Shown here: positions 12,695 through 12,770 of the stretch, one piece after another
How positions within the stretch are numbered: the first letter of the stretch is position 1
Layout of the letters: each line of letters starts with the position of its first letter
Program-made: the position numbers and the translations under genes
Notes under the pieces: generated by a model
What the model was told of the DNA's origin: nothing
Databases searched by the model: none
The model's input: only the letters and a program-made list of their open reading frames with translations
NCBI GenBank assembly: GCA_964355525.1
Contig: CAYHDY010000005.1
Span: forward strand, 1 to 39,061
Direction: 5' to 3'
Length of the DNA stretch: 39,061 bases
DNA from: an uncultured Gammaproteobacteria bacterium
GTDB taxonomy: Bacteria > Patescibacteriota > Patescibacteriia > UBA9934 > GWF2-40-263

Positions 12695-12770
12695 TGGTGG
12701 ACCCGACGGGGATCGAACCCGTGATTATCAGTGTCAAACGGATCGAGGTTGCCATTACCTCCACAGGCCC
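12695..12770 (-). tRNA. Non-canonical tRNA-like RNA (G3:U70/A73 Ala-type acceptor; ambiguous anticodon UGA/UUG/GAC)
   Basis: GGGCCUG/CGGGUCC-A-CCA acceptor, ACGGG-UUCGAUC-CCCGU T arm, 5-bp D stem GAGGU/ACCUC, anticodon stem with a C-U mismatch. Confidence 0.8.

Follow-up and report, generated by a model that had tools for sequence, protein, structure and literature searches.

Only a few tRNA-shaped RNAs are known to have jobs other than decoding, namely the transfer-messenger RNA (tmRNA), Y-RNA-like RNAs, pseudo-tRNAs, and viral tRNA-like ends; mascRNA is a further tRNA-shaped RNA, at the 3' end of MALAT1. Antisense RNA pairing is known for its YUNR motif and, in CopA/CopT, for a four-way junction. 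Type III toxin–antitoxin systems (ToxIN) follow the order promoter, antitoxic RNA, terminator, and effector, and RNA toxins, e.g., CreT, are also known. The closest published case that we found is that of the allo-tRNAs, natural tRNA-shaped RNAs that combine the determinant of alanyl-tRNA synthetase (AlaRS), G3:U70, with non-Ala anticodons, and which, as their authors suggested, may serve as missense suppressors and/or as RNAs with a regulatory role (Mukai et al. 2017, PMC5389517). Bacillus cereus has a pseudo-tRNA, tRNAOther, which is described as a non-translating tRNA-like regulatory RNA (PMC3399842). Here, we analyse a tRNA-like RNA and its upstream leader, encoded on the minus strand of a stretch of 39,061 nucleotides (nt), hereafter the window, which is the entire contig CAYHDY010000005.1 of a genome of 1.03 Mb in 71 contigs (assembly GCA_964355525.1). 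The evidence directly supports three points: the RNA belongs to a family, this family is conserved, and two blocks of the leader show co-varying complementarity to the tRNA-like body. In our view the RNA probably does not work as a tRNA but is under control and non-decoding, and we regard it, with slightly better than even confidence, as an antisense-gated, AlaRS-charged, non-decoding tRNA mimic. A preliminary description of the window had singled out the tRNA-like RNA; the main feature, i.e., the upstream promoter and the leader antisense to the D/anticodon half, was absent from it.

The family is part tRNA-Ala, in its acceptor, and part U-turn antisense pair, with a type III-like layout, and it is a member of none of these classes. 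Allo-tRNAs combine 8/4 or 9/3 acceptor/T branches with a long variable arm, whereas the family has 7/5 branches, a variable loop of 4 nt, and an antisense leader. Like tRNAOther and mascRNA, which act as or arise with regulatory RNAs, it is tRNA-shaped and has a form that points away from translation; unlike it, both are single-copy and are not known to have alanine identity or an antisense leader. With antisense pairs (CopA/CopT, hok/sok, Sib/Ibs) it shares complementary imperfect hairpins, UNR U-turn nucleation, a possible progression to a four-way junction, and the cognate-only specificity among paralogues that is reported for Sib/Ibs (PMC2943612). It differs from them in that a single transcription unit encodes both partners on one strand, the complement comes as two blocks whose order is swapped, and a tRNA-shaped RNA takes the place of an mRNA as the target. 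The order of elements is the one of ToxIN, and here too an effector could act on the tRNA pool, as with CreT, but there is neither a protein toxin nor repeats, and toxicity is only hypothesised. Finally, a sequence in the leader pairs with the anticodon and immediately precedes a terminator hairpin, as in T-box riboswitches. Here, however, 10–11 nt and a further block are paired, where a T-box uses a 3-nt specifier; a Stem I platform and a T-box sequence are missing, the sensed RNA comes from the downstream part of the same unit, and the units share no regulated protein gene. The leader had no match in Rfam at E up to 1, T-box included, and neither the leader nor the unit is represented by a family in Rfam 15. 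In the window, the loop of the leader contains a T-box-like UGGU, which was considered and set aside, as it is specific to the window and not conserved in other units. Searches of full-text articles outside subscription journals and supplements gave no description of the family, which is apparently undescribed.

Conservation of the tRNA-like domain and of its leader

The features attributed to this RNA in the preliminary description are all present on the minus strand. The acceptor stem is GGGCCUG/CGGGUCC, including G1:C72, G2:C71, and G3.U70, and A73 is followed by an encoded CCA. The T arm is normal (ACGGG/CCCGU around the loop UUCGAUC), the D stem GAGG/CCUC reaches 5 bp when the extending U:A pair is added, and the anticodon arm has a stem AUCCG/CUGAU with a C30.U40 mismatch and the loop UUUGACA. 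ARAGORN labels the gene tRNA-Ser(tga). As had been remarked, this Ser anticodon UGA comes with C37 and without a long variable arm, the variable loop being of 4 nt. The discriminator that identifies tRNA-Ser is G73, in whose place the window copy has A73, as do 87/87 members of the family. The Rfam tRNA model scores 37.1 bits on this copy, against a gathering score of 29, and 57.9 to 72.8 bits on the other three tRNAs of the window; at gathering thresholds, the Rfam scan of the window returned nothing except tRNA, and permissive scans added only tmRNA matches below threshold and matches due to chance.

ARAGORN finds 34 tRNAs and one tmRNA in the genome. Among them are three tRNA-Ala genes (anticodons UGC, GGC, and CGC), two of which, GGC and CGC, have acceptor stems equal to those of the tRNA-like RNA, and a canonical tRNA-Ser(UGA) of 88 nt on contig C18, with a long variable arm and G73, so that the tRNA set leaves no gap for the window copy to fill. 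Another short gene called 'tRNA-Ser(tga)', on contig C32, shares G3.U70, A73, CCA, and the entire loop with the window copy and differs from it by compensatory changes in the acceptor and anticodon stems. A third copy (C55:183-258), not called by ARAGORN, reads CGA at the anticodon position and has acceptor mismatches at 4:69 and 5:68. It may be decaying, and in its unit the promoter, the two leader blocks (the second matching at 11/11 positions), the outer stem, and the terminators are all intact. These mismatches and the ARAGORN label are what speaks for an ordinary tRNA-Ser, a decaying tRNA pseudogene, or a mobile-element relic. We consider this explanation refuted by the missing variable arm, by A73, by the canonical gene on C18, and by some 250 homologues in which each of the four stems, and the leader as well, shows compensatory changes. 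Neither of the outcomes that the preliminary description had named as fatal to its proposal, an ordinary tRNA filling a gap or a lone decayed pseudogene, is thus what we found.

The leader contains two blocks, seg1 and BOX, that we placed by best-match search. In the window, seg1 forms 10 Watson–Crick pairs and 1 G.U pair over the 11 positions of its target (the 3' strand of the D stem, nt 26, the 5' strand of the anticodon stem, and nt 32), and BOX forms 11/11 Watson–Crick pairs with the anticodon loop from U33 and the 3' strand of the anticodon stem. Over 88 units, BOX scores at least 9/11 in 84, against 11% with permuted tRNA partners, and seg1 does so in 73, against 4.9%. Most units have an exact complement of 8–12 nt between about -57 and -100, and none has one on the downstream side, where matches do not exceed 7 nt. 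Pairing to the blocks is uneven along the loop: Watson–Crick pairs are formed at positions 35–38 in 98–100% of cases, at 34 in 88%, at 33 in 46%, and at 32 in 28%. The 88 units have 75 distinct decamers at positions 34–43, for 65 of which BOX has at least 9/10 Watson–Crick pairs, and for 44 all ten; since these distinct decamers mostly keep a matching BOX, the leader match has been re-made many times. A comparable complement was absent upstream of all 32 ordinary tRNAs of the genome (the maximum for positions 33–43 is 8.5/11), and the same test gives 11 and 10 for the two units called by ARAGORN. The order of the blocks is swapped relative to a plain antisense copy, so the leader is not an inverted duplication and can itself form a hairpin. 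In short, the two RNA segments have the extended and co-varying complementarity of an antisense pair.

We compared the helices formed between leader and body with those formed within each of them. Among 81 units, the BOX:39–43 helix is entirely Watson–Crick in 55 and free of mismatches in 71, and the seg1:27–31 helix in 42 and 59, respectively. The anticodon stem is entirely Watson–Crick in 1/81 and free of mismatches in 12/81 (a mismatch is present in 69/81), and the leader stem, in the register of the anticodon stem, in 1/81 and 17/81. By these pairing rules, the cross-pairings are kept perfect and the self-pairings imperfect. All the energies given here and below are predictions. RNAcofold gives a mean of -8.4 kcal/mol for the cognate leader and tRNA-like RNA, with 59/81 at -5 or lower, against -2.7 kcal/mol for non-cognate pairs, with 58/324 at -5 or lower. 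For the full unit of the window, the folding energy is -101.1 kcal/mol (z -7.8), with the BOX:anticodon helix in both the minimum free energy (MFE) structure and the centroid, and the window leader has a z of -4.2.

The alanine-type acceptor identity noted in the preliminary description turns out to be the most conserved feature of the family. G3.U70, C71, C72, and A73 are invariant in 87/87 members, G1 is found in 85/87, and G2 in 86/87, in the midst of pairs 4:69 to 7:66 that co-vary, with double changes in 22, 16, 34, and 17 sequences, respectively. G3.U70 is the acceptor determinant of the AlaRS identity rule, and because this wobble pair is constant amid the free covariation of the surrounding pairs, we see in it the signature of AlaRS recognition; the acceptor of the family would thus be charged by AlaRS. 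CCA is encoded in 76/87 members. Across the alignment of 87 members, 94.7% of the cells are paired, against 78.8% in shuffles, and 0/500 shuffles reach the observed value. The acceptor is paired at 99.5%, the D and T stems at 98.6% each, and the anticodon stem at 81.1%. U8, A15, U33, T54, A58, and C61 are invariant, and G18G19 is kept. Within ordinary tRNAs, tRNA-Ala scores best against the family models, and the family shares with it, and with alanine minihelices, the G1:C72, G2:C71, and G3.U70 pairs, A73, CCA, and a normal T arm. It departs from tRNA-Ala by its 5-bp D stem, 4-nt variable loop, weak anticodon stem, pyrimidine 37, U14, own promoter, and antisense leader, and by an anticodon that is not NGC in 80/88 units (UGC is found in 8/88).

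The suspicion that this anticodon cannot be interpreted was well founded, in that the family's anticodon lies outside the normal constraints of decoding. First, a pyrimidine occupies position 37 in 84 of 88 units (C in 74 and U in 10), and the other 4 have A. Second, A14 is almost universal in tRNAs, and 86/87 members have U14, which forms the fifth pair of the D stem. Third, pair 31:39 is unpaired in 50/87 members. The core expected for decoding (purine 37, A14, and a 7-nt loop closed by 31:39) is present neither in the family nor in the window copy. Fourth, the anticodon position reads UGA in 46 units, UGG in 9, UGC in 8, UGU in 6, CGA in 5, UAA in 4, UAG in 3, CGU and UAC in 2 each, and UCA, GAG, and UAU in 1 each, such that position 36 can be any of the four bases, with a purine at 35 in 87/88 and U33 in 88/88. 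A U-N-R pattern is typical of the U-turn docking loops of antisense RNAs, and judged by its U33 and R35 the loop is built like these recognition loops rather than like anticodons. The mistranslating tRNA put forward in the preliminary description would be a decoding tRNA that deliberately inserts Ala at UCA (Ser) codons in the case of the window copy, and at other codons elsewhere, with the leader controlling its level or maturation. The intact cloverleaf, with its T loop, G18G19, and U33, and the AlaRS-type acceptor agree with this, and the work on allo-tRNAs shows that natural G3:U70 tRNAs with non-Ala anticodons insert Ala in E. coli (PMC5389517). The idea is disfavoured by the pyrimidine at 37, by U14, by the weak anticodon stem, whose open 31:39 pair makes a loop of 9 nt, by the 4-nt variable loop, by the freedom of position 36 (one copy reads the UGA stop), and by a leader complement that spans the whole anticodon, and we hold it to be quite unlikely.

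Another proposal of the preliminary description, a minimal tmRNA-like RNA, was not upheld. The tRNA-like domain of tmRNA (RF00023 and RF04321) has in common with the family an alanine acceptor and a T arm. The RF00023 model outranks the tRNA model at 10/11 other loci scanned, with 24–39 bits, and tmRNA_permuted (RF04321) gives 29 bits in the window, in a range of 26–31. These values remain below the tmRNA gathering score of 47, and they reflect the shared acceptor and T arm only. The RNA has no coding part, tag frame, or pseudoknots, it has full D and anticodon arms, and the genome encodes a full tmRNA with its tag on contig C45 (ARAGORN), adjoined by the gene of SmpB.

Distribution of the family

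We searched for relatives with two covariance models, one (R1) built from the window and C32 copies and one (R2) from the 87 members. R1 has matches of 60–103 bits in 34/61 relatives, often several per genome, and the canonical tRNA-Ala of the same genomes, the nearest ordinary tRNA, scores 58–61 bits. Across the 151 genomes sampled from the order, R2 has about 250 matches, and in 104 of these genomes it reaches E ≤ 1e-12, on E-values that are rough. We count as true members those at E ≤ 1e-14, above the level of canonical tRNA-Ala, which are present in 83/151 genomes. The 21 genomes at 1e-14 to 1e-12 (a number taken from the match table) were set aside because three genomes whose best earlier match was a canonical tRNA-Ala (G010, G016, and G056) lie at the same level. 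Genomes have from 0 to 10 copies, the highest numbers being 10 (G024), 9 (G044), and 8 (G277). The host order is a single order of Patescibacteria whose records are titled Candidatus Uhrbacteria. Outside it, R1 found no match at E ≤ 1e-14 in 147 genomes of the class, and R2 none at E ≤ 1e-13 in 150 genomes of the phylum sample. The family is therefore multi-copy and, as far as searched, restricted to one order of Patescibacteria.

A pattern of the D arm, scanned in one genome per species, gave 60 loci, of which 44 have a family-level model match. The records of these 44 are titled Candidatus Uhrbacteria, Patescibacteria group, 'bacterium', or 'uncultured Gammaproteobacteria'. Two Uhrbacteria loci match the model weakly, and 14 loci, from phyla other than Patescibacteria, have no model match and were discarded as chance matches. 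Viral contigs gave a single pattern match, which is not a family member. A unit between uvrA and uvrB is common to three loci (L001, L002, and L013) across genera. Family RNAs are also seen in many records of metagenome-assembled genomes named 'uncultured Gammaproteobacteria bacterium' (L092, L094, L096, L101, L108, L111, and others). Such labels look wrong, because several of these contigs are identical to contigs of the order's genomes.

Proposed function of the unit

The mechanism that we propose would operate as follows. A consensus-type promoter would start an RNA whose first 40 nt or so form a leader, with two blocks antisense to 22 contiguous nt of the tRNA-like body. Most transcripts would end at a first hairpin, H1, and give a short leader RNA, and read-through past H1 would give the tRNA-like RNA, released by RNase P and 3' processing. 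CCA addition is implied, because 11/87 copies lack an encoded CCA. An outer stem would clamp the tRNA-like RNA, and a second terminator, H3, would close the unit. In this RNA, the acceptor/T half would be a genuine tRNA-Ala acceptor, charged by AlaRS, and the anticodon loop would be a U-turn toehold for its own leader instead of a codon reader. The single-stranded tail of BOX would dock on the U-turn loop at positions 34–38, after which pairing would invade the D stem and the weak anticodon stem, the latter on both of its strands, in a four-way strand exchange. Pairing with the leader would unfold the L-shape and leave an alanyl acceptor/T minihelix, such that the leader would gate the shape, and hence the activity, of an alanine-accepting non-decoding tRNA mimic. 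The conservation of G18G19 and of the T loop argues that the L-shape matters at some stage, the perfect cross-pairs argue that the unfolded complex matters too, and since both appear to matter, a switch is indicated.

A number of observations weigh against this reading. First, expression, processing, and charging, like the transcription start and stops and the direction and purpose of the control, are things that we infer. Second, efficient termination at H1 is hard to square with the production of enough tRNA-like RNA. Third, the complementarity scores are inflated in raw form because of the best-match placement, and their sole control, permuted partners, shares the conserved parts. Fourth, the members are kin, and their counts overstate the number of independent events (though there are 75 distinct decamers); purine 35 and the frequent UGA may likewise be due to inheritance and not to selection, and the U-turn pattern of U33 and purine 35 may owe something to descent. 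Fifth, folding predictions are equivocal. The tRNA-like RNA folded alone is no stabler than shuffles (z +0.16) and its MFE structure is not a cloverleaf, the leader hairpin of the window is predicted in a register shifted from the one scored, and the whole-unit MFE folds of eight units are split between a cloverleaf with a leader hairpin and a leader:tRNA pairing, which suggests that the two states are close in energy. Sixth, a generic promoter/terminator scanner calls neither the promoter nor H1 and H3 in the window, for which reason these signals rest on their conservation in the family; the stem of H1 is bulged and the -10 has no A at its second position. Last, about 45% of the genomes of the order gave no family member, which indicates that its function is dispensable.

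We put forward, tentatively and with confidence well short of even, a more specific form of the antisense-gated mimic: a programmable two-RNA switch remade from a tRNA-Ala, in which the anticodon arm would be an address opened only by its own leader via toehold-driven four-way exchange. If this were true, a cell could hold up to ten mutually insulated pairs, and in its boldest form the switch would be an RNA-only toxin–antitoxin or defence module whose toxin is an alanine-charged tRNA mimic. The family would add to the non-decoding RNAs a tRNA-shaped RNA with a co-evolving antisense partner for each copy, and with an anticodon loop reused as an RNA–RNA docking site. Within a single lineage of uncultivated, ultra-small bacteria the family is common, and the fact that up to ten copies are kept despite small genomes suggests a real though dispensable function, such as translation control, stress response, or genetic conflict. 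There are also practical consequences. tRNA finders label these genes tRNA-Ser, Thr, Pro, Leu, etc., which skews tRNA sets and predictions of the genetic code. The module is small and protein-free, and its orthogonal pairs could interest RNA engineers.

The RNA-only toxin–antitoxin module, serving addiction or defence, deserves to be weighed as an explanation of its own, and we judge it unlikely. The alanine-charged mimic would be the toxin, which would jam or mislead ribosomes or soak up AlaRS or EF-Tu, and an abundant and short-lived leader RNA would be the antitoxin, kept in excess by H1 as in type III systems, with diverged anticodon arms preventing cross-talk between paralogues. The layout of promoter, antisense RNA, terminator, effector, and terminator fits this idea, as do the patchy distribution (0 to 10 copies), the absence of a protein partner in cis, the U-turn-type recognition loop (U33 in 88/88 and R35 in 87/88), and the difference in energy between cognate and non-cognate pairs; discrimination of this cognate-only kind among paralogous pairs is documented for Sib/Ibs (PMC2943612). 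However, toxicity is purely hypothetical, and the 8/88 units with the cognate Ala anticodon UGC imply that missense cannot be the general toxic act. The uvrA/uvrB position kept across genera is more like vertical inheritance than like a selfish mobile element, and the only pattern match on viral contigs is not a member.

Layout of the unit and genomic context

The unit spans about 280 nt (12912–12635 of the window), with a layout established from the flanks of 33 and then 90 members (Table 1).

Table 1. Elements of the window unit, in order of transcription, with their recurrence in other units
Element	Position	Strand	Remarks
TCCACA element upstream of the -35	12907..12912	minus	CCAC[AT] 44–58 nt upstream of the leader in 36/80 units
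-35 hexamer TTGACA	12893..12898	minus	TTGA[CT] 33–39 nt upstream of seg1 in 79/80 units
Extended -10-like element TGATTAAAT	12870..12878	minus	TnnA[AT]T at -10 distance in 58/80 units
Leader block seg1 (ACGGATTGAGG)	12853..12863	minus	Complementary to tRNA-like positions 22–32
Small apical leader hairpin GAGG...CCTTC	12842..12856	minus	Variable among units, missing in some
Leader block BOX (ATCAGTGTCAA)	12823..12833	minus	Exact reverse complement of positions 33–43
Hairpin H1 with 5' A-run and 3' U-run, intrinsic-terminator-like	12787..12821	minus	-13.4 kcal/mol, z -4.97
Outer stem, 5' strand CCCGGGC	12776..12782	minus	Pairs with 12679–12673
tRNA-like RNA with alanine-type acceptor (G3.U70, A73, CCA), anticodon position UGA, C37, U14	12695..12770	minus	76 nt; cloverleaf read from the sequence
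Optional trailer hairpin CCAAGGCGAGAGTCTTGG, with the encoded CCA part of its stem	12680..12697	minus	Only in some units
Outer stem, 3' strand GCCCGGG	12673..12679	minus	NCCA(A/C) next in many other units, not in the window
Hairpin H3 and U-run, putative terminator of the unit	12635..12667	minus	-15.7 kcal/mol, z -7.22

Transcription would start at about 12864–12862, on the first base of seg1. The promoter of the genome's rpmI-rplT genes is of the same type, including a CCAC[AT]-type motif, so the putative promoter of the unit belongs to a strong, generic type. Between seg1 and BOX lie 4–44 nt, or 6–27 nt where both blocks are well placed. A hairpin stands at the place of H1 in the units displayed, and the segment from BOX to G1 has a mean folding energy of -21 kcal/mol (81 units). 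The CCCGGGC/GCCCGGG flanks, pointed out in the preliminary description as a possible processing stem, are present, and a flanking stem is conserved in the family. A strict regular expression caught it in only 36/80 units; in its place, a search for helices, controlled by shuffling, gave an outer G+C-rich helix scoring at least 5.5 in 73/81 units, against 34% of shuffled trailers. Two other interpretations of parts of the unit were discarded. TTGACA in the anticodon loop is not an internal -35, given that it has no -10 at a workable spacing and that the loop varies (TTCACA, TGAGAA, and others), and BOX is not the end of a small reading frame, as the frame and stop are inconsistent among units. 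Contigs of four metatranscriptome runs gave no coverage of the stretch, and we draw no conclusion from them.

The layout also raises the possibility that the unit is a processing or terminator cassette, in which the tRNA shape is a handle for RNase P and 3' enzymes, the product is the leader or nothing, and processing sets where the leader RNA or nearby mRNAs end. The units are intergenic, between unrelated genes, with two terminators each, and in the window H1 also ends the upstream gene. Furthermore, in 34/81 units the outer helix is directly followed by [N]CCA, which resembles a guide-type helix for RNase P. The chances of this explanation are slim in our view, as it accounts neither for the invariant G3.U70/A73 (87/87) amid a co-varying acceptor nor for the 22-nt match of the leader to the tRNA body, and the genome's ordinary tRNAs are without such leaders.

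The window unit lies downstream of a sugar-transferase gene whose stop codon (12915–12913) abuts the promoter, and upstream of glycosyltransferase and FkbM-methyltransferase genes; the generic scanner calls a promoter-like site at 12623–12595 ahead of the glycosyltransferase gene. Just upstream of the sugar-transferase gene, on the minus strand, are genes for a class I Trp/Tyr-type tRNA synthetase (14974–16002) and RNase J (17678–19507). The association with a polysaccharide cluster, to which the preliminary description had tied the RNA, does not extend to other copies. Their neighbours are unrelated and include uvrA/uvrB, polA, dnaE, enolase (eno), ribonucleotide reductase (nrd), cysS, trmD, wzy, L10, and others, so the polysaccharide setting of the window copy looks incidental. 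We found no protein partner in cis, the neighbours being unrelated housekeeping genes with nothing recurrent between tandem units, and no extra AlaRS paralogue, with one AlaRS gene per genome in 59/61 relatives.

A further alternative is that the RNA donates alanine in a non-ribosomal reaction, e.g., to a Fem-type cell-wall peptidyl transferase, with the odd anticodon arm barring it from translation. The genome encodes a FemAB-family protein (C3:39819-40751), units of two other genomes (G054:C134 and G044:C1) are near femAB genes, and the features of a non-decoding RNA agree with this role. We nonetheless find it very unlikely, since FemAB is encoded in 59/61 relatives with or without units and both genomes that lack it (G021 and G025) have units, since the units are dispensable and multi-copy, and since the antisense leader would be unexplained.

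Some observations on the surroundings of units stand on their own. The two units near femAB-family genes (L081 and L068) are at less than 1 kb from them, and another (L045, G014:C18) is about 170 nt upstream of alaS on the same strand; chance could account for both kinds of proximity. Several ordinary tRNA genes are found at 0.5–1.3 kb from the units L016 and L029, from which it follows that units can sit within tRNA gene clusters. Elsewhere in the genome of the window, at C9:~4158-4260 and C47:~2673-2780, a promoter of the TCCACA...TTGACA type is directly followed by an H1-like hairpin (A-run, CUCCC, loop, GGGAG, and U-run) and then by a protein-coding gene. Leader hairpins or attenuators built in this way may be general in the lineage. 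In bacteria, AUA is usually read by a lysidine-modified CAU tRNA, and a tRNA-Ile with anticodon UAU is uncommon; ARAGORN calls such a tRNA-Ile(UAU) in the window (34624–34700, minus strand), with 72.8 bits for the Rfam tRNA model.

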